Part shown: piece by piece, positions 2,692 to 58,483 of the stretch
How positions within the stretch are numbered: the stretch's first letter is position 1
Layout: every line of letters begins with the position of its first letter
Virus record (IMG/VR): IMGVR_UViG_3300017754_001396
Coordinates: 282-64,281 of that record
Length of the DNA stretch: 64,000 nt
Source: a virus
Lineage: Duplodnaviria > Caudoviricetes
Reading direction: 5' to 3' (one strand)
Position numbers and translations under genes: made by a program
Notes under the pieces: model-generated
Told to the model about the DNA's origin: nothing
Seen by the model: the letters and a program-made list of their open reading frames with translations, nothing else
Database searches by the model: none

Positions 2692-3682
2692 AGAACTAGA
2701 CAAGGTAATTTATGAATACCTAGAAAATTTTCCTGAGCATCCTACGCTCACAATAGCTAAGATGATTCGCGAAGACTATCCTAGTATGTTTAACACACTG
2801 GAAGATGCTCGTCAATCGGTAAGATACCGAAGGAACGAAAGAATTGAACGTAAAACCGAAAAGAAAGAGAAATTTGAAAGGACACCTGAGCAAAGGAAAG
2901 CAGCTCTAGGTACTTTTAAACTTCCGGAAAGTGATTACCAAAAGAAGGGTGATTACATTATGCCGGTAGCTAGTAACCGGGGGTTGATTATGAATGACAT
3001 CCATATCCCTTATCATGATATGGAAGCCCTTGAGGCAGCGATAACTCACGGGATTAAGTTCAAGCCTAACTTCATCTATCTAAATGGAGATACGGTTGAT
3101 ATGTATCAGGCATCTAGGTTTATTAAGGATAGGCTTCTTAGAGACCTAGCAGGAGAGATTGAGCTTACGCGTGAGTTCCTTCGTATGCTTAAAGACACAT
3201 TTAATTGCCCTATATACTTTAAGATTGGTAATCACGAGGACAGATGGGAACATTACATGATGACTAAGGCTCCTGAATTGTTAGGTATAAAGGACTTTAA
3301 ATTGTCAGAGGTACTTCGATTCGGTGAGCTTGGAGTTCAGCAGGTAGACAGCAAGCAATTGTGCCGTATGGGTAATATGATTGTAATGCATGGTCATGAG
3401 TTTGGTCAGAGTGTGTTTAGTCCTGTGAATAGTGCGAGAGGTCTATACATGAAGGCTAAGGCTAATTGTGCTGTAGGACATCATCATCAGACTAGTGAGC
3501 ACACTGAGAAGGATGTGAATGGTAATGTGGTTACTACGTTTTCTATTGGGTCCTTGTGTGGATTGTCCCCGGACTACTTCCCTTACAACAAGTGGAATCA
3601 CGGATTTGCGACCATTGAGACTGAGGAGAATGGTGACTATGAGTTTAGAAACTATAGAATAGTGAACGGAAAAGTTCAATAA
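2675..3682 (+). CDS. calcineurin-like metallophosphoesterase with N-terminal helical domain
   Basis: DIH, GDxxD, GNHE, HGH and GHHH motifs in order. Confidence 0.85.
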   Translation: MSQKSKELDKVIYEYLENFPEHPTLTIAKMIREDYPSMFNTLEDARQSVRYRRNERIERKTEKKEKFERTPEQRKAALGTFKLPESDYQKKGDYIMPVASNRGLIMNDIHIPYHDMEALEAAITHGIKFKPNFIYLNGDTVDMYQASRFIKDRLLRDLAGEIELTREFLRMLKDTFNCPIYFKIGNHEDRWEHYMMTKAPELLGIKDFKLSEVLRFGELGVQQVDSKQLCRMGNMIVMHGHEFGQSVFSPVNSARGLYMKAKANCAVGHHHQTSEHTEKDVNGNVVTTFSIGSLCGLSPDYFPYNKWNHGFATIETEENGDYEFRNYRIVNGKVQ

Positions 3683-28966: not shown

Positions 28967-31900
28967 ATGGCTGAGAATTTAATGGAGACACAGACTGGAG
29001 GAGCTGGTGATACTACACAGCTTGCTCCTGAAACACCTGTTACGCCCGAACAGTTTGACGTTCAATTACCTAATGTTGGTCAGCAACAAGAAACTGCTGC
29101 GCCTACACCTGCTGATAGTGAACCTCCTGCTACGCCTCCTGCTGCTCCACCTACTGAACCACCATCTCCTGTTGTACAACAATCTTTGCTTGATGTTGAG
29201 AATCAAGCTGAGGATGAACAAGCTGGAGCTGAATTGGAACAAGAGCAAGGACCATTAGTTTCTCAGTTACCATTTAGCGCTGCTAAACAACCTGTTGGCG
29301 CTGATGTTGGTTTTGTGGATTGGTTTTCTGGGGATGCTACTAAATCAATTGAGGACGAGGAGAATAAGGCTATAGAGATGCTCATGAATGAGGAGATGCC
29401 TCAGCCTAACATAATCACTCAGAATGAGATAGAGACTATTAACTCTCAAAAGGAAAGAAGTCCATTTGTATTAGATGGAATTGTTGTAGATGAAGGTGTA
29501 CAGCTTGGTGAGGATGAAGAAGGCGTTATGCCTTCCTTTGCTGTTGAGGACTCTGAAGAGGATGAGCGTTTTCAGGATTTTGTTCTTGATGGTATTGGGC
29601 CATCTGATGAAATGAGAGCTGCTGGATTAGACCCTAAAGAAAGAATACCTAAGGATTATACTCCTGCTCAATGGGCGGAGAAAAAGAAAGAGATTCAGAC
29701 TCAATACCCGGGATGGGATGTTGTCGTTAGTGACGATGGAAGTGGAGTGAAGGTTGTAAAGGAAGAAGTTAAGAAGCAACAACCAAAACCAGTAAGTAAG
29801 GGTGGTACTGTAAAGCAAGCTCCCAAGCAAAATGTAGTAAATCAGATACTTACATATCCTAAGAACCCGGGTTCTGATTATATGACTGATGGTACTCATT
29901 GGTACAAAAAGAAAAGCGGTACTAAAAATTGGCTTACTATTACCAATGATGGTTCTGTTACTACTCTGAATAATCATTTCAAGACCAATGTTCCTAAAGT
30001 AACAAAATACACATACCCTAATAAGCCGTATGAGTATGCTGTAGTTAAGGGGCATTGGAACATTAGAAAGAAAGGAGATACCAACTGGAAGATGATATAC
30101 GAGCCTGAGAGGATTAAAGTCCTTAATGGTAGTTTTAATAAAAAGCTTGGCGTTCCTGTTCAACTTAGCGAATCGCAAAAACAACTAAATAGAGCGGTTG
30201 CTGTTGCTAAGCAAGCCGGTATGAGCTTGAGTAGCCCTAAGATAGGCGCTGTTAGTACAGATAGCGAAGGGAATCCTATCACAGCTACATTTGGTCTTAC
30301 TTCTACAGGGGGCACTAATCTAGCTTCTGCTCCTGACTATGGAGGGTTATTCACTCCACAGCAAAGACCATCAATGCCTATTGTGCCTGCATCGACTCAA
30401 GAGAGATGGTCTAAAGAAAATATAGCTGGTCTTGAGAATCAAAGGAAGATTGAGCTTGATGCTATTAACAGGGGTGCTGGTACTCCACAAATGAAGCAGA
30501 AAGAGATTGCTTCAATTAATAAGAGATTTGATGCCCTAGTAAATAAAGAGAAATCTAATATACAGGGAGCTAAAGAATACGAGAAAGAGGCTACAAAGCA
30601 AGTATTTACTGCTCCACTTCCTGAAAAAGTAAAGAAAGAGATAGACCTTTCTGACCAAATAAATAAGCAGTTTGGAATCAACATCGCTAAGGATAATATT
30701 CCTTTACTTGATTTAAATTTAGGATTGGTTAACAAGATTACTGACCAACAAAAAGAAGAGACGCTTGATAGGGCTCAGAATTTTGCGGATAAAGATTTAG
30801 ATGCTTGGAGAAAAAGTCCTGAGGGTAAGATACTATCTGAAAGTCAATTTAATGAGCTTAAAGCAGCTCAAACAAATGTAAAGATGTCTCTTGGTCTTGG
30901 AGGGGATAAAGGAGATGTTTCTTTTGTTCAAGTAGGGAATCTAATGAAGCAGCTTCCAGCGATAGAGCAAAGCTATGCTATGGCTGTAAAAACAAACAAT
31001 GAAATAAATCAAGTCGCACTTGAAGGGAAGACAATTGATGAGTACTCACTAGATTATAAAAAGAAGTTTGTTAAGGAGATAGACTTAAATAATGAGGCAT
31101 TAGTTCATGCTAAAGATTTATTTAATGCTACTGCTGCCATACATGATTTTGTTTCTCCTTATATAAAGTCAGGAAAGGTAACAATTGACAAGAATGGGAT
31201 GTACCGAAAGGGCCCTAACATGAATGCTAATGAGAAAAAGTATTTTGATGAGAAGCTCGGTGGGTTATTACAAGCATACGATAAGGAAAAGAATACTTCA
31301 TACAATACGTATCAAGATGACATAAGGAATCTTAATGCCAAGAAGAAAGTGCTAAACGATATGCTTCAGAAGCAGCAAGGCGTTTTATTCTGGATGAAGA
31401 CAGACCCTGCGAGGAAAAATGAATATCAACTTGCTTTAAAAAGAGTAGAGGCTTTAAAGAAAAGAATATCGGATGTAGATAGTAAGATAGATGACTTTAG
31501 CAATAGCTCTAGGGCTTTCTTTTCTACTGATGCTAAATCTATTCTGTCTAGCACTTCTAGCTTTATGAAGAATAGTGATTTTAAGGCTATATATATGTCT
31601 GCAAACTCTAAGCTTACCCCTAAGCAGAAGTTTGATATATCCTATAAAACATTAGTAGAAGAGAATAAAAAATTAGCACTTCAGAATAATATAAACACTA
31701 GTTATCTTGATGCTGTTGGAGCTAGAGTCAGGTCTCTTCTTGATTGGAACACCCTTGGTATAGAGTTAACTGAGCCAGAGAAAAAATGGTTTGCTAACCA
31801 AAAAATCATTAATCAATTACGTCCTTTATTTCTTAATAACGAGAATGGCATTGTTGAGGAATCGGCTAGCTTTATGGAGTCATTCCAAGCTGGAATAAGA

Positions 31901-34690
31901 AATATTACTGTTGGCGAGGACATAGCTGGAGCTGAAGGTTATTATACAGGAACTTCTCAGGCTAGAACTATATCTGAACAAATAATAAATCTCGGATTTA
32001 ATAAAGAGGATTTAGCTAATCCTTTAGCTTTAAAAGACATTGAGCAAAGGAAGAATGTTAGCTGGATAAGTGCTGAGGGCGCTGGAGAAATAACAGCTCC
32101 TACAGCAATGCTTATAGCTGAGATAATGGTAACTAGACAGGTTGGTGCAAGTCTTATGGCATTAGGTAAAACTGTTGCTAATATGGCTAAGGTAGTTGAC
32201 GCTACTGGTGATGCTATAGGTTACGGAGATAAGATGTCTAAGCTATATAAGTCTTATGCTACTGTAATGCAGAATAGTAGATTAGGTAGATATACTTTTG
32301 ATGCTGTTGAGCAGGGAGTTTTATTTGAGGCTACAGGAGAGTTTTTTGGTAGGTCTGAGGATAACATGACTTTCTTACAAGGATTTGCTGGTTCTTTTGC
32401 TGGTTCAGCTATGGGTGACTTAATGAGTAAGATACCTGTAGGTAAAGCAATGCCTATAGTTCAGTCTATATTTGGAGATAAAACAGAACAGGCAATAAAT
32501 GTATTCAAGAAAGCCGGTCAGATAAATGCTAATGCTTTAGGTGAGACTTTTCAAGAGACTGCGGAAGAGCTTGCGGGTATCTATCAAAATAGATTAGAGG
32601 GAGAAGGATTCTTTGAAGCCGTATCTAATCAATTTGGTTCATTTGATGAGGTAATGAAATTTGTTGTCTCATCATATGTGATGGGTGCTGGGTTTGGTCT
32701 AGCAGTACCTAAGAAAGCTCAAGAGGCATATAACTCTATGAGTGAAGAAAAGAAGAAACAAATAGATGATACTGTTACCGCTGTACGTAAAGACTATGAG
32801 GACGCTAGCGCTGCTTATGATAACGCGGCACAAGTTCTAAAAGATGAAGTAGAAGTTGAGATAAATCTTAACGCTGAGCCAGAATCACAGGCTGACATAG
32901 ACTCTAAGCAAGAGAATGCTGGAATTCTATTAGGTGGCGAACCTACTCCTGAAGCAGAAGGTAAGATACAGGAAGGAGAAGTAACTGAAGCTGAAGTTGA
33001 ACAAAAGAAACAAGATGATACAGAAGACAAAACAGGGCTACCAAGTGAAGTCCGAGAAGGGGAAAAACCTGTCGAAGCCGAACCTTTCCCTGAAGCAAGC
33101 CAAGAAGAAGTTAGCCCTAGTGGAGTGGTTCAAGAAAAACAAGAAGTAGCACCTACAGAAGGAGGCTTACAATTTGAACTTCCTACAGCAGGTACTGAAG
33201 CTGAATTGACCCCTACGGAAGTAACAGAATCAACCCTTACTAGAGAGTTTGACCTTTCAGAGGAACAAGTCGTAGAAGAGGCAACAGAAGAGGTAGCCGA
33301 CATCATGGCTGACGAGAAGCTATCTGAGGAGCAAAAAGAAGAGAAGATAGATGAGGTAGTAGTAAAGACTAAGAAGAGAAAAACTGCTGCTAAGATGAGG
33401 GGTGGAGACATGAGTATATCCACAGAATCATCCAAAGAATTAAAGCAAGAAATCAAGGCTAAGGCTGAGCCTAAAGTAGAAGATAAAAAGGTAGAGAAGG
33501 AAGAGGCTAAAGGAGAAGTTAGAATGCCTAGCAAACCTAAACTATTTATTAGTGGTATCGCTAGAGGATTTGAGGATTTCTCAGGTGGTGAAGGTCCGGG
33601 AGATAGAAGAGACTTGTCTTCTGAGCTTGACTATCCTACTACTCCTAATACTCCAGCAAGAAGCAGAGGTGTCTTTGTAAGAGATATAAACGGTAAGAAA
33701 TATGTAATTGCCGTATCAAACACAGATGCTAACGGAAATAGAATTAGAGAGGTAGCTGGCAATAGACCGGGACATTTACAAGTAGCTGTTGAGGTTGATA
33801 AAAACGCTTCTAAAGAGGAGATAAATGATGCTGTTAACTACGTTGGTAAAGCAATGGGTATGATGCTTCCTAATGTACGTAACGGACAAATAAACTCTGG
33901 TCTAGTAAAAGAATCTGCAAAAGGTATAGAGGGGAGGGTTGCTTCATCAATTCTTGAGTCTAAGGTTAAAGAAAGAAAGGCTAAGAAAGAGGAAGCTCCT
34001 GCTAAGACTGAAGAAAAAACAGATATAGAAAAAGGAGCTGATTTGCTTTCATCTATGACTGAAGAGGAAAGAGATAATTTCATAGATGATTGGTATAATG
34101 ATAGAATACCTAGAGAATCATTACCGGGGGGAAATGATGCTGTGTTGTTAAATGAAGCTAGAAAAATTGCTTCTAAACCTATGTCAAAGCCTAAAAGAGT
34201 TAATATTGACAATGCATTTCAACTAAGCAATGAATATGGTTTTGTAATGAATATAGATGGTGAGGTTTATGGGCTTTACAAAATTGAAGACCCTGATGCC
34301 ACATCAGATGCTGAAGATAGATATGGAGACCCAAAAGAATATGTTTGGGCTTATAAAAACCTAAGAGACGGAACTGGAAATGAAACATATTTATCTGATA
34401 TAAACGACCTAATTGATGATATAAGGTCAAATAAAAAAGCTAAGGCTGAAGCACCCACTGAGACTAAAACTGAAACTCCTGTTGAAGCTGAAGCTAAAGC
34501 AAATCCATTCGAAGACCTACCTAGCATCAAGGGTCTACCATCTCGTTCACCTAAGAGAAAACAGGCAATAGCAGACTTTGATTCTAAACATGGAGAAGGT
34601 GCTTATGAGCGAGTTTCAAAAATAGATGCTAAATTTGGGGAAATAACTAAAAAGTTGGAAGAGAACAAAGTAATCAAAAAAGATTGTTAA
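28967..34690 (+). CDS. giant internal virion/ejection protein
   Basis: 1907 aa; P/E-rich disordered segments; glycine-zipper hydrophobic region (QGFAGSFAGSAMG; VMGAGFGLAV); single Cys as the last residue. Confidence 0.6.
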   Translation: MAENLMETQTGGAGDTTQLAPETPVTPEQFDVQLPNVGQQQETAAPTPADSEPPATPPAAPPTEPPSPVVQQSLLDVENQAEDEQAGAELEQEQGPLVSQLPFSAAKQPVGADVGFVDWFSGDATKSIEDEENKAIEMLMNEEMPQPNIITQNEIETINSQKERSPFVLDGIVVDEGVQLGEDEEGVMPSFAVEDSEEDERFQDFVLDGIGPSDEMRAAGLDPKERIPKDYTPAQWAEKKKEIQTQYPGWDVVVSDDGSGVKVVKEEVKKQQPKPVSKGGTVKQAPKQNVVNQILTYPKNPGSDYMTDGTHWYKKKSGTKNWLTITNDGSVTTLNNHFKTNVPKVTKYTYPNKPYEYAVVKGHWNIRKKGDTNWKMIYEPERIKVLNGSFNKKLGVPVQLSESQKQLNRAVAVAKQAGMSLSSPKIGAVSTDSEGNPITATFGLTSTGGTNLASAPDYGGLFTPQQRPSMPIVPASTQERWSKENIAGLENQRKIELDAINRGAGTPQMKQKEIASINKRFDALVNKEKSNIQGAKEYEKEATKQVFTAPLPEKVKKEIDLSDQINKQFGINIAKDNIPLLDLNLGLVNKITDQQKEETLDRAQNFADKDLDAWRKSPEGKILSESQFNELKAAQTNVKMSLGLGGDKGDVSFVQVGNLMKQLPAIEQSYAMAVKTNNEINQVALEGKTIDEYSLDYKKKFVKEIDLNNEALVHAKDLFNATAAIHDFVSPYIKSGKVTIDKNGMYRKGPNMNANEKKYFDEKLGGLLQAYDKEKNTSYNTYQDDIRNLNAKKKVLNDMLQKQQGVLFWMKTDPARKNEYQLALKRVEALKKRISDVDSKIDDFSNSSRAFFSTDAKSILSSTSSFMKNSDFKAIYMSANSKLTPKQKFDISYKTLVEENKKLALQNNINTSYLDAVGARVRSLLDWNTLGIELTEPEKKWFANQKIINQLRPLFLNNENGIVEESASFMESFQAGIRNITVGEDIAGAEGYYTGTSQARTISEQIINLGFNKEDLANPLALKDIEQRKNVSWISAEGAGEITAPTAMLIAEIMVTRQVGASLMALGKTVANMAKVVDATGDAIGYGDKMSKLYKSYATVMQNSRLGRYTFDAVEQGVLFEATGEFFGRSEDNMTFLQGFAGSFAGSAMGDLMSKIPVGKAMPIVQSIFGDKTEQAINVFKKAGQINANALGETFQETAEELAGIYQNRLEGEGFFEAVSNQFGSFDEVMKFVVSSYVMGAGFGLAVPKKAQEAYNSMSEEKKKQIDDTVTAVRKDYEDASAAYDNAAQVLKDEVEVEINLNAEPESQADIDSKQENAGILLGGEPTPEAEGKIQEGEVTEAEVEQKKQDDTEDKTGLPSEVREGEKPVEAEPFPEASQEEVSPSGVVQEKQEVAPTEGGLQFELPTAGTEAELTPTEVTESTLTREFDLSEEQVVEEATEEVADIMADEKLSEEQKEEKIDEVVVKTKKRKTAAKMRGGDMSISTESSKELKQEIKAKAEPKVEDKKVEKEEAKGEVRMPSKPKLFISGIARGFEDFSGGEGPGDRRDLSSELDYPTTPNTPARSRGVFVRDINGKKYVIAVSNTDANGNRIREVAGNRPGHLQVAVEVDKNASKEEINDAVNYVGKAMGMMLPNVRNGQINSGLVKESAKGIEGRVASSILESKVKERKAKKEEAPAKTEEKTDIEKGADLLSSMTEEERDNFIDDWYNDRIPRESLPGGNDAVLLNEARKIASKPMSKPKRVNIDNAFQLSNEYGFVMNIDGEVYGLYKIEDPDATSDAEDRYGDPKEYVWAYKNLRDGTGNETYLSDINDLIDDIRSNKKAKAEAPTETKTETPVEAEAKANPFEDLPSIKGLPSRSPKRKQAIADFDSKHGEGAYERVSKIDAKFGEITKKLEENKVIKKDC

Positions 34691-35160: not shown

Positions 35161-38100
35161 ATGGCTAAACCTTGTAACTACCAATTAGCTGGGGAAGACA
35201 CATGGATGTCGGAATCAGATTTTAAGCAAAGACTTAATGAAGGCTTATTGGATAAGCTTCTTATTGATAATAACATTAAGATACCGGGAATAAAACCTGT
35301 TAAAGAATCTGCTCCCCGTGCAGTTGAGCAGACTGCGCCTAGCTCTTCGGTGGCGGCTCAAGAGAGAGAAGCCGCTGCTGTTGATGCTAGAAAATCAATA
35401 CCTAAGCAATTCAACGAAGGTTATGTAGAGGTAGAGGGCAAGGAAAAAGGTAAAGCATACAAGGGTTACTCTATTAAAGTAAACGAAGGCAACAAAACTG
35501 CTGACATAAAACTTCCTAATGGTAAGGAAATGAAGAATCAGCCTATCCTTCAGTTTGAGGGGTTGATGGCTGACGAAAGTCCATTGTATGTTAGAGCTGA
35601 TGGTGGTACGTCAATACGCATTCCTAGTCAAGCCGAACTTGATGCTAAGGCTGAGAAGCAAGCAATGGTAGAAGAGGAGAAGAAAGCCACTAAAGAGAAC
35701 AGGGACTTACGCAGGAAAAACATTGATGGTTTTGAAGAATTAGAAAGCAAAGCCGCCCTTGATATGGCTAAGAAACTTAGATTCAGTCCTAATGAATTCA
35801 CTGGAGATGAGATTATTGGTGAAGTAGAAGGACTTACTGAGTTTGATGAGAAGGTAACAGTTAACGGAAAAACTTACGGAACTGATAAGAATAAGTCAGT
35901 TACTAGGGTAATAGAGAAGTTAGAAGACTCAAAACAAATATCTGCTAAAGAAGCGGAGATATTACAGAAAGCATTTGATGCTAAAAAAGATGCGTACTGG
36001 AGGGCTAAAAACAACAAAACCAAGGAAGACATCAAGGATAAGATTGATAAGATGGCTGAGGAGCTTAAAAAGCCCAAAGGAACTAAGTCTACAATTAATC
36101 CATTTGACTTCTTACCTCAGAGTATTAAGAATAAAGCAATTGACTTATTTAGGGATTTATTGAAAAAAGGCGTTGATGCTTCTTTTGCTTTTAGAGAAGC
36201 TGTATATAATGCTATGATTCCAGAGATACAAGCTGGAAGAATGACTATTGAGGAAGGTAATGAGCTTGAGACAAAAATGCTTGAAAACCTTAAAGACGCT
36301 AGGGAACTAGATGAATATACTGAAATAGAGATGCAAAGGCCTGATTTAAGGACTCAGGTTAAATATAGGACTGAAGCTCAAAAGAAAATGACAAGAGAGC
36401 TTACCAAGAAGAGGCCAAAAAATAATGAAGAGCTTACCTTATTAGCTAGACAATTCATGAATGATGGATTGATAGAGCCTAAGAGAGATATAATAGACCC
36501 TGTTATAAGTGGAGAAAGAGACTTGTATATGAGTCCACTTAACGAGATAGAACAGGCTATACTAAGATTATATGGTAGAGACCTAGAGGATAGCATGACT
36601 GAAGTAAATAGGAAGTCAATAAAGGCGGTTCAGGAGGGGAAGCCTACTAGAATATATGATGATGAGAGGGCAAAAATAGAATCTGATATAACATCCTATG
36701 TTGATGTAATGCTTGATGACTCTTTAATTACTGGTAGGTTGTTTAGCTTTAGAAGAGAACTTGAAACATCAAGAATGACGTTTGAAGAAATGATGATTAA
36801 AGCTCAGTCTAAAGCAACAAATTCTAATGGAATTCTAAGTGAGGAAACAAAGCAAAAGTTTAAAGACATAGCTGATAAGTTTGCTGAGGTAGAAAGGCAA
36901 CTCAAAATAAAAGAAGCAGAAGTTATGAATGCAGCCGAGAATGAGGCTGTTCAAAATATAGTTGATGATGTCAACGAAAATGGAGCTGATGTAGAACCGG
37001 AAACAAAAAACATAAAAGAAAAAGCAAAGAAGATAGCTGAAAATCTACGTAGAAATAAAATACACAGACCGGGAATGTTCCTTATGGCAACACCCGGGTC
37101 ATTAGCTTTTGACGCTGCCGTTGAGGCTGCTGCTACTGCGATAGAAGCCTCTGGAAGTGTTATTAATGCGGTAAATAAAGCCTTACAGTCTTTGAAGAAT
37201 GGTGATTGGTATAAATCACTTTCTGATGAAAAGAAGGAGGAGGCTGAGAAACAATTATCAAATTATATAAAAGGTTACTCAGGTGAAATGATTTCTTCTT
37301 CTGATGGAAGTCTTAAAATACCAATGTCTTTAGTAAGGAATCTTGTTGCTAGTGGTGTTGATACTATTGAGGGATTGGTTGATAAAGTAAGAGAGGAATT
37401 AGAATTCACAAATCCAGAGCTGTCGTTTACTGATAGGCAAATAAGAGATGCTATAACTGGATACGGCAATTTCATTAAACCTCCTAAGAGTGAACTAGTT
37501 AAAAAGATAGCTGACTTGAAAAGTGTCGGGAGGATGATTTCCACACTTGAAGATTTAAGAAATGGAATTAGAAAATCTAAGAAGCCAGCTGAGGTAAAAG
37601 AACTTAAAGAGCAAGAAAGATATTTAAAAGGCCAGATAAGAGCTATTCTTAATACAATTCCTGTAAGTGCTGAAGATGAGATAATTATAAGAAACTCAAG
37701 GTTAAATGCTCTCAAAAATGAACGTAGGAATAGAATAGATGAGCTTGAGAGAGCTAAGGCAGAAGGAAGAAGACCTGAAAGAAGAAGAAGGGCTCAGCCT
37801 GTATCTGATGCTACCACAGAAAGATTACAAAACAGAATAGACGAGCTTGAAGATGAGATAAACCAATTCCCTTATACTGAGGAAGAGCTTGAAGAGATAG
37901 AAGCTCAAAGATTAAAACAATACAAAAACACCCAAAGGAGAGCAATAAAAGAGCTTGAAAGAAAACTCAAAGAGGGCGATTTTTCAAAAAAGACACCGAA
38001 GTCTCTTGAGCTGGATGAAGAAGCTACTGAATTAAGGAATAGAAGGCAAAGACTTAGAGATGAGTTTGAAGCCGAAGTAGAGGCAATAGAATTAAAAAAT

Positions 38101-39621
38101 AGAGGTTTAGGTATAAAAATCATTGACACCATTGTTGGTTCTGTAAATGACCTTAAATCTTTAAGTTTGTCTGGTGATATAGGTGCATTTAGGCAGGGTG
38201 GATTTATCATGGCTGACCTAATATTATCAGACCCTAAAACGGTTGGTTTATTTATAAAAAGAATTTTCACATTAGCTGGTATAGTTCCTAAGACAAATCC
38301 AGTGACTAATCCTAAAAAGTTTGCTAAAGAGTTAGTTAATTCACTAGTAGATGAGGATAATGGGAAAAAGCTTTATGATGCATTAGAGTTAGATAGGAAA
38401 CAATCTGGCGATTATGAATTGATGAAAAAGTCAGGTTTATTCTTACAAGAAGAAACTCAAAAGTTATCACAAAAAGCAGAGGGAGTGGCTGTAGGTATAG
38501 TTAAAAAAATACCTTTATGGGGTGAGCCATTAAAAATAAAAGGAAAAACATGGGTTCCCGGACTTGATATAATGGGTAGAGGTGAGCGTTCATTCTCCGC
38601 TATAAATGAGTTAAGGACGACTACGTTCATGCAAGGAGTAAGAAGGCTTAGGGAGGCTGGGTTTAGCTTTGAAAAAAATCCAGATGCATATAAAGCTTGG
38701 GCACGTCACGTAAATACTATGTCAGGTAGAGGAGTTGGTGGAAATCATAAATTAGGTAGAGCCTTTGAAGCTCTAGCTCCTATATTAAATACATTTTTTG
38801 TTTCTGCTAGGTTCTTAAAATCAAGATTTGATTTATCTCTACTTAATCCTTACGGTATATATAAGATAGCTATGCTTCCTAGGCCACTTAAATTATTAGC
38901 ATTTAGACAGGTTGCTGCTGCTAACGCATACATGGCAGGAACTACATATATAGCGTATCTTGTTTTAGGAGCTACACTTGCGGCACTTGGAAAAGATGAT
39001 GAAGATGAAGAGGGATACGAAGTATTTACGGGTGAAAGTACGGAAGAAGAAGATAAAAATGCATGGGAGCTTTCAATGGATATATTCTCTTCAGACTTCG
39101 CCAAGTTGACTAAGGGTGATGTATCTGTTGATTTCCTTGCAGGTCTTAGCCAAACAAATGTTTTTATAGCTAGAGAGGCTCCTTATGTTGGTGGTAAGAA
39201 AACAATGAAAGATGGAGAAGTAGTTAAGCTAAACTCTAAATTCAATGGGCCTACTTATGGAAATGTAGCGGGCAACTTCTTGATGAGCAAGATGGTCCCT
39301 TGGGCTCAGGCTGGTGTTAGGTATCTTATAGACACAAGAAAAGAAGAAGAGGAAGGAGTTCCTTCAGAACCATCAACAGATGAAGCATCTAAAAAGAAAA
39401 TAGAGGATTACTTCTTGCCTTTGTCTGTAATATTAGCTAGAGACTTAGCTAAGCAGAAAAACTTATCTGTTTCAGAGAAGATAGCATTGAATGCTTTATC
39501 ATTCCTTGGTATAGGCAACGCTAACGTTAGCTCATTTGGTAAGAAGGAAGAGAAAGGAGGCTATGAAGTATTCACGGGTGAAGGTGGTTCATCTGGATAT
39601 GAAGTCTTCACAGGTAACTAA
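35161..39621 (+). CDS. giant internal virion/ejection protein (large polyvalent-like, coiled coil, C-terminal TM segment)
   Basis: 1486 aa; long coiled coils; hydrophobic YMAGTTYIAYLVLGATLAALG; three GYEVFTG motifs; single Cys at residue 5. Confidence 0.6.
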   Translation: MAKPCNYQLAGEDTWMSESDFKQRLNEGLLDKLLIDNNIKIPGIKPVKESAPRAVEQTAPSSSVAAQEREAAAVDARKSIPKQFNEGYVEVEGKEKGKAYKGYSIKVNEGNKTADIKLPNGKEMKNQPILQFEGLMADESPLYVRADGGTSIRIPSQAELDAKAEKQAMVEEEKKATKENRDLRRKNIDGFEELESKAALDMAKKLRFSPNEFTGDEIIGEVEGLTEFDEKVTVNGKTYGTDKNKSVTRVIEKLEDSKQISAKEAEILQKAFDAKKDAYWRAKNNKTKEDIKDKIDKMAEELKKPKGTKSTINPFDFLPQSIKNKAIDLFRDLLKKGVDASFAFREAVYNAMIPEIQAGRMTIEEGNELETKMLENLKDARELDEYTEIEMQRPDLRTQVKYRTEAQKKMTRELTKKRPKNNEELTLLARQFMNDGLIEPKRDIIDPVISGERDLYMSPLNEIEQAILRLYGRDLEDSMTEVNRKSIKAVQEGKPTRIYDDERAKIESDITSYVDVMLDDSLITGRLFSFRRELETSRMTFEEMMIKAQSKATNSNGILSEETKQKFKDIADKFAEVERQLKIKEAEVMNAAENEAVQNIVDDVNENGADVEPETKNIKEKAKKIAENLRRNKIHRPGMFLMATPGSLAFDAAVEAAATAIEASGSVINAVNKALQSLKNGDWYKSLSDEKKEEAEKQLSNYIKGYSGEMISSSDGSLKIPMSLVRNLVASGVDTIEGLVDKVREELEFTNPELSFTDRQIRDAITGYGNFIKPPKSELVKKIADLKSVGRMISTLEDLRNGIRKSKKPAEVKELKEQERYLKGQIRAILNTIPVSAEDEIIIRNSRLNALKNERRNRIDELERAKAEGRRPERRRRAQPVSDATTERLQNRIDELEDEINQFPYTEEELEEIEAQRLKQYKNTQRRAIKELERKLKEGDFSKKTPKSLELDEEATELRNRRQRLRDEFEAEVEAIELKNRGLGIKIIDTIVGSVNDLKSLSLSGDIGAFRQGGFIMADLILSDPKTVGLFIKRIFTLAGIVPKTNPVTNPKKFAKELVNSLVDEDNGKKLYDALELDRKQSGDYELMKKSGLFLQEETQKLSQKAEGVAVGIVKKIPLWGEPLKIKGKTWVPGLDIMGRGERSFSAINELRTTTFMQGVRRLREAGFSFEKNPDAYKAWARHVNTMSGRGVGGNHKLGRAFEALAPILNTFFVSARFLKSRFDLSLLNPYGIYKIAMLPRPLKLLAFRQVAAANAYMAGTTYIAYLVLGATLAALGKDDEDEEGYEVFTGESTEEEDKNAWELSMDIFSSDFAKLTKGDVSVDFLAGLSQTNVFIAREAPYVGGKKTMKDGEVVKLNSKFNGPTYGNVAGNFLMSKMVPWAQAGVRYLIDTRKEEEEGVPSEPSTDEASKKKIEDYFLPLSVILARDLAKQKNLSVSEKIALNALSFLGIGNANVSSFGKKEEKGGYEVFTGEGGSSGYEVFTGN

Positions 39622-50810: not shown

Positions 50811-50868
50811 TCTATTCTGTTTTAATTACCGTACTATTGTTACGCATAGCCATTAGTTAGCCACCATA

Positions 50869-51252
50869 TTAAAGAGGCTGCGCAATCTGCTCACGACATA
50901 TCATATAAAATACATTTCGAGCCAATGCCCCCAAATCATAAAAATCCTTTGAAGGAATTTGATTTAGTTCTAATAATTCTGGAATAGCAATAAACACATC
51001 TTCTGAAATTAAAACATTCAATTGCTCATAAGTAAATTCTTTTACTGTATCGTGTGTTTTGAAATATTTTTGTTGTAAATATTCCGAAAATGCTTTTAAT
51101 GACTTATCAATATCAACCTTTGCTCTATGTTGGTTTCCTGCAAGCCAATAAGCCATTGCCCCTGTAAAATCACTTAGCATCAAGTGAAATGTTTCATTTC
51201 TAAAACTCTCACTAATTTCTCTGTTTGTTAAACTAAATTTTGTCTTTTCCAT
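50869..51252 (-). CDS. hypothetical protein carried on an integron-type cassette
   Basis: 127-aa ORF bracketed by GTTAGCCACC (51297-51288) and GGTGGCTAAC (50865-50856). Confidence 0.7.
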   Translation of the reverse strand: MEKTKFSLTNREISESFRNETFHLMLSDFTGAMAYWLAGNQHRAKVDIDKSLKAFSEYLQQKYFKTHDTVKEFTYEQLNVLISEDVFIAIPELLELNQIPSKDFYDLGALARNVFYMICREQIAQPL

Positions 51253-51290
51253 TTTTATTTGTTTTTAAAATTAAATTACTAAAATACGGT

Positions 51291-51385
51291 GGCTAACAAA
51301 GGTTATAAGTAATGCAGCCACCAAGTGTAGTGCTAATTTGATACGGTATACAAGGCTACACTACTCATAACCTCAACCGTTATAC
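51291..51385 (-). mobile_element. attC-like recombination site (95 bp)
   Basis: R''-like GTATAAC containing the upstream stop codon, 20-bp inner inverted repeat (17/20 match), R'-like GTTAGCC. Confidence 0.65.
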
Positions 51386-51580
51386 GCCATCCTGAACGAT
51401 ATACGACCTACTTTTTTTGTCATAAGTAACATTTTCTTTTGGTATTATTTTTACCTCACTGATTAATATCTTACAAGGCTCATCTAAAAACCAAATATAT
51501 TCAGGGTCGCTTTCTTGTATTATACCAGCTTCGCAGTATTTCGGTCTTATTCCTTTTGGTTGAAAATAAATCACATCCAT
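51380..51580 (-). CDS. hypothetical protein (likely start MDVIYFQPK at 51580)
   Basis: ATG adjacent to the upstream stop; its own stop lies in the attC R'' box. Confidence 0.55.
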   Translation of the reverse strand: MDVIYFQPKGIRPKYCEAGIIQESDPEYIWFLDEPCKILISEVKIIPKENVTYDKKSRSYIVQDGV

Positions 51581-51581
51581 T

Positions 51582-51893
51582 CTATTCTTTTTTAAAGTGT
51601 TCAACATCAATAGTACCATCCCTGTATTCGGTTACTATTGTCTCTGATTTAAAGGTTTCGTTGTAGTATTGTTCAGCGTATTGAATATATTCTTGACTTG
51701 TTTTTGAACCTTGTTTTACACCTTCAATATGGCAATGCCATGCGGTTCTCATTATCTGCTCTTTCTCCATTTCTTTGGCTTGTTTAAAATATTCATTATA
51801 AAGGTCTAAATGTAAACTTAAAGACCTTTCATTTCTTGTAGCTTCAAGTTCTCTTATTTCAATCTCTAACCACTCTACTGCTGTCTGTTTCAT
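51582..51893 (-). CDS. hypothetical protein
   Basis: MKQTAVEWL...QAKEMEKEQI family common in Flavobacteriia phages. Confidence 0.6.
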   Translation of the reverse strand: MKQTAVEWLEIEIRELEATRNERSLSLHLDLYNEYFKQAKEMEKEQIMRTAWHCHIEGVKQGSKTSQEYIQYAEQYYNETFKSETIVTEYRDGTIDVEHFKKE

Positions 51894-56896: not shown

Positions 56897-57133
56897 TCAA
56901 TTAGTATCTGCCTCGGTGTCTTCTGCTTCATTGCTTACATTGTCTTTAATTAGATTCATAATATCCTCATCCATATTGTCGGTGAAGTCTAATGATTTCT
57001 TTATCACATCTTTTATCTCGGGATTAACAGTGAATGCTAATACGAATCCCGACATCAAGTCAGCGATGTCTCCGTTAATTTCAAGGCGAGCGCCATCACC
57101 ATCGGTGTAAAAACCGAAAATTAATTTTTCCAT
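56897..57133 (-). CDS. acidic hypothetical protein
   Basis: 78-aa ORF with A-rich leader. Confidence 0.55.
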   Translation of the reverse strand: MEKLIFGFYTDGDGARLEINGDIADLMSGFVLAFTVNPEIKDVIKKSLDFTDNMDEDIMNLIKDNVSNEAEDTEADTN

Positions 57134-57145
57134 AATTGTTTGTTT

Positions 57146-57409
57146 TTAAAATAAGTCGTGTTCCCTAACTAATACTTGTGTCTTTCTTGTGTACCTAGAA
57201 AGAATCTTTTTGACATCTACCTGTAGGAATTCAGATAAGAAGATGTAGACGTAAGCGTCTCGTGGGATAGTATTCCCGTTAACTAAGTTGTAAACATTTT
57301 GTGAAGATAACCAGTTGCCCGGAATCCTCTCGTGAACTAATGCCTCTTGAATACTTTTCACTGATGAACCGTGTGCATCCAAAAGGTCTTTGATACCTTT
57401 CCTGTCCAT
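57146..57409 (-). CDS. HTH-like DNA-binding protein
   Basis: 87 aa; SQNVYNLVNG helix pattern; TAATTTTG boxes upstream at 57436-57429 and 57462-57455. Confidence 0.5.
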   Translation of the reverse strand: MDRKGIKDLLDAHGSSVKSIQEALVHERIPGNWLSSQNVYNLVNGNTIPRDAYVYIFLSEFLQVDVKKILSRYTRKTQVLVREHDLF

Positions 57410-58006: not shown

Positions 58007-58404
58007 CCCTTAACTATTTTAATTAGCCCCCATAGGATAGATATCTCTGTCTCTGTCCTTGTCTGTACCTTAGGCTTCCTTGCCTTCCTTACTTTTACGT
58101 TTTGTATGTAAGCTTCCGGTTTCTTTTCTGCCATACCTATTGTTGGGTCTTGTGGGCTCTTTACTAAGTCACGCGACAATACCTTGTATCTACCTGTCTG
58201 TATGTACTTGTGATACGCGCTTATTATAGAGCTCTTACTTCTTCCCATTTGTTTGGCTATGTCATCAAGACCTTCGTTAGAAGTTCCATAGCTTTTCTTG
58301 TCAAGACCATTAAGTTCAATCAACTTAGATAAGTCTTTGATGGTCCATCGAACATAGCTTTTTTGTTCTTCACCTCTCCTTCTTTTTCTTTCTTGTGTTT
58401 CCAT
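58003..58404 (-). CDS. Myb/HTH-like DNA-binding protein
   Basis: RWT..DL..L...IAKQMGRSKSSI; C-terminal EISILWGLIKI tail. Confidence 0.55.
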   Translation of the reverse strand: METQERKRRRGEEQKSYVRWTIKDLSKLIELNGLDKKSYGTSNEGLDDIAKQMGRSKSSIISAYHKYIQTGRYKVLSRDLVKSPQDPTIGMAEKKPEAYIQNVKVRKARKPKVQTRTETEISILWGLIKIVKG

Positions 58405-58483
58405 GTTTATTTGTTTTTAGTTAATACTTAATTGAATCCAACATATTGCTTTTGTTAGATTATAAATTGAGCAAAGGTGATAG

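Follow-up and report, generated by a model that had tools for sequence, protein, structure and literature searches.

The window, as we call the whole stretch of 64,000 nt analysed here, comes from an uncultured, Bacteroidota-type phage of the Caudoviricetes deposited in IMG/VR (record IMGVR_UViG_3300017754_001396, 64,281 nt, completeness estimate 95%), and our analysis concerns a 523-nt unit within it. The unit lies between small phage genes and holds a single open reading frame (ORF) of 127 aa behind its own imperfect palindrome, and like the unit itself the genes around it are encoded on the minus strand of the window. The unit, its parts and the adjoining phage sequences are as follows, all in window positions.

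50857 to 51379, minus strand: whole cassette, 523 nt, in the order C, spacer, hairpin, GTTAGCCACC, leader, ORF, GGTGGCTAA
51288 to 51388, minus strand: folded recombination-type site, 101 nt, an imperfect palindrome with a TAAC...GTTA core
51388 to 51379, minus strand: left flank of the site, R'' GGCGTATAAC
51378 to 51374, minus strand: 5' spacer GGTTG, 5 nt
51373 to 51354, minus strand: 5' arm, 20 nt
51353 to 51320, minus strand: loop, 34 nt
51319 to 51300, minus strand: 3' arm, 20 nt
51299 to 51298, minus strand: 3' spacer TT
51297 to 51288, minus strand: R' box GTTAGCCACC
51253 to 51287, minus strand: AT-rich leader, 35 nt, from the site to the start codon
50869 to 51252, minus strand: 127-aa cargo ORF
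50856 to 50865, minus strand: cassette right end, R'' GGTGGCTAAC, the exact reverse complement of 51288 to 51297, ending in the right TAAC core
51380 to 51619, minus strand: upstream 79-aa phage gene, with relatives in 42 viral contigs
50811 to 50855, minus strand: 45-nt remainder between the cassette end and the next phage gene
50598 to 50810, minus strand: downstream 70-aa Cys-rich phage gene

The two arms of the palindrome pair at 17 of 20 positions in an ungapped stem, the other three positions being G.T when read on the minus strand. The TAA that closes the 79-aa gene (51382 to 51380) sits within GTATAAC and together with C 51379 makes up the left TAAC core. The 10-mer GTTAGCCACC/GGTGGCTAAC occurs exactly twice in the 64 kb, inverted around the ORF and complementary at 10 of 10 positions, and its second copy begins 3 nt past the stop of the 127-aa ORF. 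An earlier sequence-only reading had described this arrangement (the 79-aa stop in GTATAAC, the 17/20 repeat, the box, the 127-aa ORF and the complement 3 nt on), and every part lies at the coordinates it gave; its remark that the boxes depart from consensus at one position each also holds (GTATAAC and GTTAGCC against RYYYAAC and GTTRRRY, in a site of 95-101 nt). The ORF was said to be promoter-less, and indeed neither a Bacteroidota -7 box (TAnnTTTG) nor a sigma-70-type promoter was found on the minus strand inside the unit. The same reading saw no integrase, and our search of the window's phage record returned no tyrosine recombinase, serine recombinase or Y1 transposase (PF01797). No terminator-like site was called within the unit, the thermodynamic signal of the fold is modest (z -1.7 for 143 nt and -2.7 for the exact site), and the sole Rfam match, to RmaA at 23 bits against a gathering score of 57, was sub-threshold and was rejected as chance.

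Copies of the unit in other contigs show that it moves as a whole. The same hairpin of about 95 nt was found in 3 viral and 23 metagenome stretches by a protein search and three DNA pattern scans, and homology to these copies begins right after the left TAAC and stops at the right TAAC. The crossover is placed somewhere within the shared TAAC. The combination of hairpin, ORF and GGTGGCTAAC stands behind eight different left flanks, that of the window included, all of which end in TAAC, and the right flanks vary too. In the compared contigs L056, L071 and L074 (L-numbers are labels of compared contigs or stretches) the 523-nt unit is 95-97% identical to that of the window, with 120-nt flanks at background identity. 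The right flank of several copies is the start of another hairpin site, so that the cassette lies there inside a foreign array. Eight unrelated ORFs, 80-154 aa long, also stand behind this hairpin with the same GTTAGCCAC and GTGGCTAAC boxes, and none of these ORFs matched a Pfam family. The more distant homologues of the window's ORF (76% and 55% identity) stand in ordinary gene contexts from which the boxes are absent. An exact-pattern scan of 185,579 species genomes for the 3' arm of the window hairpin gave no match. Our results demonstrate that 50857 to 51379 is a genuine and recently mobile single-gene cassette, and the mobile cassette with a folded attC-like site that had been proposed from the sequence is borne out by these 95-97% identical copies between unrelated flanks.

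The hairpin of the window belongs to a large family of sites which span 50-140 nt and share the TAAC/GTTA core. An alignment of 50 non-redundant sites (A1) holds 24 consensus pairs, 17 of them with compensatory changes, as well as near-invariant G.T pairs, and a covariance model (R1) was built from this alignment of recombinase-linked sites of other phages, leaving out the window site and its near copies. R1 matched the window site (51288 to 51388, minus strand) with 70.7 bits and an E-value of 3.5e-11, and the next best match in the 64 kb was the antisense (plus) strand of the same site, with 17.5 bits. The window holds exactly one member of the TAAC/GTTA hairpin family, far beyond chance. 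One site and no recombinase make it an orphan cassette and not a complete system, since there is no array adjoining a recombinase gene. A generic scan for AAC...GTT hairpins with a 12-nt stem had given no more matches than shuffled sequence and was dropped for stricter criteria. The loop of the window site has, at 51325 to 51345 on the minus strand, a motif close to TCAAATTAGCAC..A.ACTT, and a similar loop motif is common to the sites of many phages (columns ~46-66 of A1); it may be an accessory binding site or a leader signal.

In related phages, a structural scan found the sites in arrays on the gene-sense strand, a few hundred bases apart, and the statistics that follow come from 296 sites in 60 phage loci, with 227 neighbouring pairs or intervals. 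The stems, 16-20 bp long, have neither gaps nor bulged bases, and their G.T mismatches are fixed (513 G.T against 24 A.C cells over the 296 sites); the 5' spacer has 4-6 nt, mostly 5, and starts with GGT or GTT, and the 3' spacer has 1-2 nt. Within an array, the 10 nt that start at GTTA in one site are complementary to the 10 nt that close with TAAC in the following site. Taking just the 6 nt beyond GTTA and the 6 nt before the next TAAC, the mean match is 4.9/6, and complementarity of at least 5/6 is found in 75% of the 227 neighbouring pairs as compared to 5% when the two ends of one site are set against each other or pairs are drawn at random. The complementarity of R' and R'' had been taken as the signature of a cassette, and this chaining in related arrays agrees with it. 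The longest ORF (median 85 aa) lies on the sense strand of the site in 222 of the 227 intervals. A general rule that the stop codon falls within TAAC was rejected, being true for 50 of the 227 intervals only. One third of the interval ORFs begin inside the hairpin loop. In L010, L012, L013 and L020 (at ~3200-3330 in each), where the next ORF starts in the loop, the 3' arm and GTTA are coding and yield the common peptide motif L-x-K-x-x-V-[IS], and the site is then under constraint as DNA and as protein.

These arrays are linked to a recombinase gene. Two array-bearing sister records encode a small tyrosine recombinase, of 265 aa in one and of 236 aa without the C-terminal catalytic-Tyr region in the other, and relatives of it are encoded in at least 219 viral stretches. 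Around the best 80 of these at least 219 loci a strict scan found 324 sites with the same strand as the recombinase gene, 2 with the opposite one and 0 in shuffled sequence; the asymmetric spacers, and G.T being allowed in the scan, account for part of this strand count but not for the positional bias. For 34 non-redundant loci the sequence reaches 7 kb to either side; they have 186 sites upstream of the recombinase gene and 2 downstream of it, and the last site ends at a median of 455 nt ahead of the recombinase start codon. The best NCBIfam match of the 265-aa enzyme is archaeal XerA with 185 bits (cut-off 220), and the integron integrase family TIGR02249 follows with a split match of 153 bits (cut-off 265). 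Against PDB sequences the enzyme aligns over its full length to Pyrococcus XerA (4A8E), and to VchIntIA (2A3V) over residues 5-178 only, an end point which we take to be just before the IntI-specific insertion. Judged from these alignments, the array-linked 265-aa recombinase is XerA-like and lacks the IntI insertion. Relatives with 40-53% identity are found in at least 528 stretches of mostly Bacteroidota genomes, so that both Bacteroidota chromosomes and phages encode them, and chained sites stand beside the recombinase gene in Flavobacterium limicola, F. palustre, Pseudopedobacter beijingensis and a Bacteroidia chromosome. The 236-aa ORF lies on one contig (L005 7949-8380; L053:1495-2205, minus strand) together with a hairpin-less homologue of the Tad5-like ORF discussed below, and three family sites are found 1.5-3 kb downstream of that homologue; this 236-aa recombinase gene is probably decaying.

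The polarity of the cassette follows from what travels together. In all contexts of the window's cassette the upstream hairpin is kept and the sequence downstream varies. Among 47 homologous ORF pairs in recombinase-linked arrays, 42 keep both hairpins, 4 keep the upstream one only and 0 the downstream one only. The hairpin and the ORF behind it thus move as one, which puts the ORF on the folding strand. The sequence-only reading had regarded the downstream attC as truncated, and this has to be corrected: the hairpin is the cassette's own 5' site and not the attC of a preceding cassette, so that nothing is missing downstream. Read on the plus strand, the succession G|TTAGCC .. GGCTAAC, hairpin, G|TTATAC does have the form of an integron cassette, but the ORF then runs antisense to the canonical direction. 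The site had also been called a hybrid of two cores, as insertion predicts, which is correct with the refinement that it is hybrid at its outer 5' box only. When the right end of the cassette is joined to 51379, a fully paired site is rebuilt, with a folding energy of -21.8 as compared to -14.4 kcal/mol (as DNA); of the two strands the sense one gives the more stable fold, and the most stable of all is that of the rebuilt circle junction.

The cargo of the cassette resembles an inhibitor of bacterial defence. The 127-aa ORF matches the Pfam family Tad5 (PF25190) with an E-value of 3.1e-5 and 24.5 bits (gathering cut-off 27). We found 76 homologues of it, and 17 of the 21 aligned ones match PF25190, the best with an E-value of 2.9e-19; a profile of the ORF family against PDB sequences gave no meaningful match. 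Tad5 was reported to bind ThsB and thereby to block type I Thoeris signalling (PMC13728456, PMC13402655). The cargo is likewise a small phage protein, of similar length, and differs from Tad5 in being a remote member of the family. By its family relationship the 127-aa protein is probably such a member, and would act as an inhibitor of type I Thoeris through ThsB binding. An accessory or anti-defence cargo had been suggested for this cassette, which is likely in view of the Tad5 family match.

Taken together, we read 50857 to 51379 as an orphan single-gene cassette of an integron-like system common to Bacteroidota phages and chromosomes, with a probability of roughly 0.7. In such a system each cassette would be one small ORF behind its own palindrome, which runs ..TAA|C, a 5-nt spacer, a 16-20-bp stem strand, the loop, the other stem strand, a 1-2-nt spacer and GTTA with 6 nt after it, and the cassette would end in the complement of those 6 nt followed by TAAC. 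A free circular cassette, in which GGTGGCTAAC would be directly followed by GGTTGAGG, would bear a fully paired site. We infer that the array-linked, small XerA-like tyrosine recombinase would act on the folded, single-stranded gene-sense strand and recombine it at the TAAC core; the partner would be a resident site or a secondary site ending in TAAC. The target here would have been the stop codon of the 79-aa gene, and insertion at this point damages neither of the neighbouring genes. Since the phage encodes no recombinase, the enzyme would have acted in trans, coming from the host or from a co-infecting phage, and the cargo, without a promoter of its own, would probably be expressed by read-through of the early operon.

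Several observations weigh against the orphan-cassette reading. Since no recombinase is encoded in the record, of which about 5% may be missing, the act of insertion is something that we infer. The empty allele of the exact locus was not found, the flanking genes being adjacent only in distant relatives, and the window has no resident hairpin at the target, which points to insertion into a secondary or decayed site. Tandem cassettes sharing the window hairpin, with the right end joined to a hairpin start, were sought in viral contigs and none was seen, so that no homogeneous source array was found. The arrays of phages lie upstream of the recombinase gene and are co-directional with it, whereas those of Bacteroidota (L204, L192, L173, L181) lie on the opposite strand beyond its 3' end (convergent), and the two layouts may represent different subfamilies. 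The Pfam score of the cargo itself lies under the gathering cut-off. Finally, the G.T pairs of the sense strand suit a role in RNA as well as a role in single-stranded DNA.

This last point leads to the alternative that survives best, unlikely as we consider it: the palindromes would be RNA elements of early operons, serving as terminators or in processing or translational control, and the genes between them would be shuffled by homologous or microhomology-based exchange at their linkers with no dedicated enzyme. It is only on the transcribed strand that the mismatches allow G.U pairing, the sites occupy intergenic regions that are transcribed, a T-rich run comes after the site, some relatives have the start codon in the loop and a coding 3' arm, and T4-type phages are known for linker-mediated shuffling (promoter/stem-loop cassettes). 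Homologous exchange, however, gives no account of the chained complementarity across each ORF, which is the product of one fixed crossover point. The arrays end at a tyrosine recombinase gene, with a positional bias of 186 to 2. The boundaries of the cassette fall exactly at TAAC in eight contexts, and the unit showed neither a called terminator-like site nor an Rfam family match. A role of the hairpins in RNA and a role in recombination are not mutually exclusive.

Another candidate is a classical integron cassette, that is, a true attC with its gene, inserted into the phage by the IntI of a host. Classical attC sites have bulged extrahelical bases and an unpaired central spacer (~5 and 5-6 nt), and in a classical cassette the attC lies 3' of the ORF, and the ORF is carried by the complement of the strand that is recombined (the bottom strand). 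The likeness to integrons covers several features: the cassettes have one gene and are mostly promoter-less, the site is an imperfect palindrome with inner and outer boxes in the layout R''-L''-loop-L'-R' and a conserved AAC/GTT core, its length of 95-101 nt fits, it turns hybrid upon insertion, the start of the cassette is complementary to its own inverse core in a chained manner, one strand folds better, a tyrosine recombinase of the Xer/IntI branch stands at the end of the array, and orphan arrays without the enzyme occur, as in the clusters of attC sites lacking integrases (CALINs). The differences lie in the enzyme and in the geometry and polarity of the site. The recombinase has 265 aa, aligns over its full length to XerA and lacks the IntI-specific insertion, scoring 153 bits where TIGR02249 requires 265; the stems are ungapped, with fixed G.T mismatches and without bulged bases; the spacers are asymmetric, with 5 as compared to 1-2 nt (5 and 2 in the window); the complementarity of the R boxes reaches 10 nt; and the hairpin and the ORF that follows it move together, the site being 5' of its ORF and the ORF on the folding strand, which is the reverse of the canonical order. 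The family is found, moreover, in genomes of lytic-type phages as well as in Bacteroidota chromosomes.

Published data on phage CALINs bear on both sides of this question. With IntegronFinder and HattCI, Qi et al. (2023) identified CALINs in the genomes of 17 phages, and of the six phage attC sites assayed IntI1 recombined five. The sole exception was P12002L_attC1, a site predicted by HattCI alone but not by the combination of HattCI with INFERNAL (PMC9892861). R1 finds four sites of the TAAC/GTTA family in Polaribacter phage P12002L (L238), and one of them is exactly this published site:

30002 to 30062, minus strand: P12002L family site by R1
32217 to 32287, minus strand: P12002L family site by R1
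38029 to 38096, minus strand: P12002L family site by R1
38873 to 38942, minus strand: P12002L family site by R1

They flank DNA methyltransferase and Mom-like genes of this cultured virulent phage. The family has therefore already been glimpsed in the literature, filed under attC, and its published 'phage attC' is the one that failed in the IntI1 assay, a point of importance for annotation. Qi et al. treated their sites as integron attC, and a dedicated recombinase, a reversed polarity or an array-wide family was not described (PMC9892861). We found no paper that describes arrays of this kind together with a XerA-like recombinase, be it in phages or in Bacteroidota, within an incomplete coverage of full texts. 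A classical integron origin is quite improbable, and the capture through a host IntI-like recombinase proposed from the sequence stands as far as the capture of a cassette is concerned, and falls with respect to a classical IntI and attC. Least probable of all is a palindrome-associated element of the IS200/IS605 type, a non-autonomous transposon moved as a single strand and inserted 3' of a tetranucleotide by a Y1 HUH transposase, since, although the element abuts TAAC on the left, ends in TAAC, makes no target duplication and has a subterminal hairpin with a strand-specific fold, it has a single hairpin per unit and a 10-nt right end without one, PF01797 is absent from the record, and the arrays are linked to a tyrosine recombinase instead.

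Xer-dependent modules are known elsewhere, namely the pdif modules of Acinetobacter plasmids and integrative elements exploiting Xer, among them the CTX phage, which folds its single-stranded DNA into a dif-like site. The cassettes described here are similar to them in the Xer-family enzyme and in having small gene modules between short inverted sites, are similar to CTX also in the putative folded single-stranded DNA, and differ in that there are no 28-bp dif-like sites, their place being taken by 50-140-nt TAAC/GTTA hairpins arrayed by a dedicated recombinase gene.

Integrons are regarded as a device of bacteria, with IntI and attC as its defining parts. The orphan-cassette reading would place the integron logic of one-gene cassettes, a folded site, a single crossover and chained complementarity within the genomes of virulent-type phages, with a smaller recombinase, a mirrored polarity and another site geometry. 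In a wider view, to which we give slightly better than even odds, a small XerA-like recombinase acting on folded gene-sense hairpins circulates cassettes, counter-defence genes included, between lytic phages and Bacteroidota chromosomes, and the window presents one recently moved cassette which is still 95-97% identical in several genomes. This would explain how small early genes, anti-defence genes among them, are exchanged with base-pair precision and with their neighbours spared. The window supplies a concrete, recently mobile cassette with a recognisable cargo, which makes the system directly testable, and P12002L may serve as a convenient experimental model for the TAAC/GTTA sites.

Some minor observations concern the surroundings of the cassette. 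The relatives of the 79-aa gene often have ..TTATAAC or CCCTAAC at their end, with different hairpin sites behind it, and in distant sister phages (L046, L047, L050) the 70-aa gene comes directly after the 79-aa gene. A blastn search with 3.1 kb around the site against deposited phages gave a single weak match only. The 45-nt remainder contains a 13-codon mini-ORF that starts at the ATG of TAATGG; a partner arm for a second site was sought in 50811 to 50855 and none was found, and this segment is not a second site.

The predicted 18-mer of the empty junction, GCGTATAACTAATGGCTA, is present in three viral contigs. These were rejected as empty alleles, their flanks having 56-64% global identity to the window, which is background, and from a rough estimate of the size of the collection one or two matches are expected by chance. 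The 18-mer, which corresponds to the joined flanks of the cassette GCGTATAAC and TAATGGCTA (from 50811 to 50855 and 51379 to 51388), lies at L239:9779-9796, L240:2016-2033 and L241:332-349, and the match extends to 22 nt in L239. An ORF begins at the ATG of TAATGG in the motif in L240 and L241, and the motif comes after an ORF of 205-218 aa in L239 and L241. In L061, TAAC|TAATGGCTA stands behind another cassette bearing the window's hairpin. The recurrence of the 18-mer could be due to chance or to a recurrent docking motif. Two short AT-rich stretches of the window, at 57126 to 57152 and 58398 to 58419, are 89-95% identical to the cassette leader and start codon (51245 to 51271), which is probably a low-complexity similarity.
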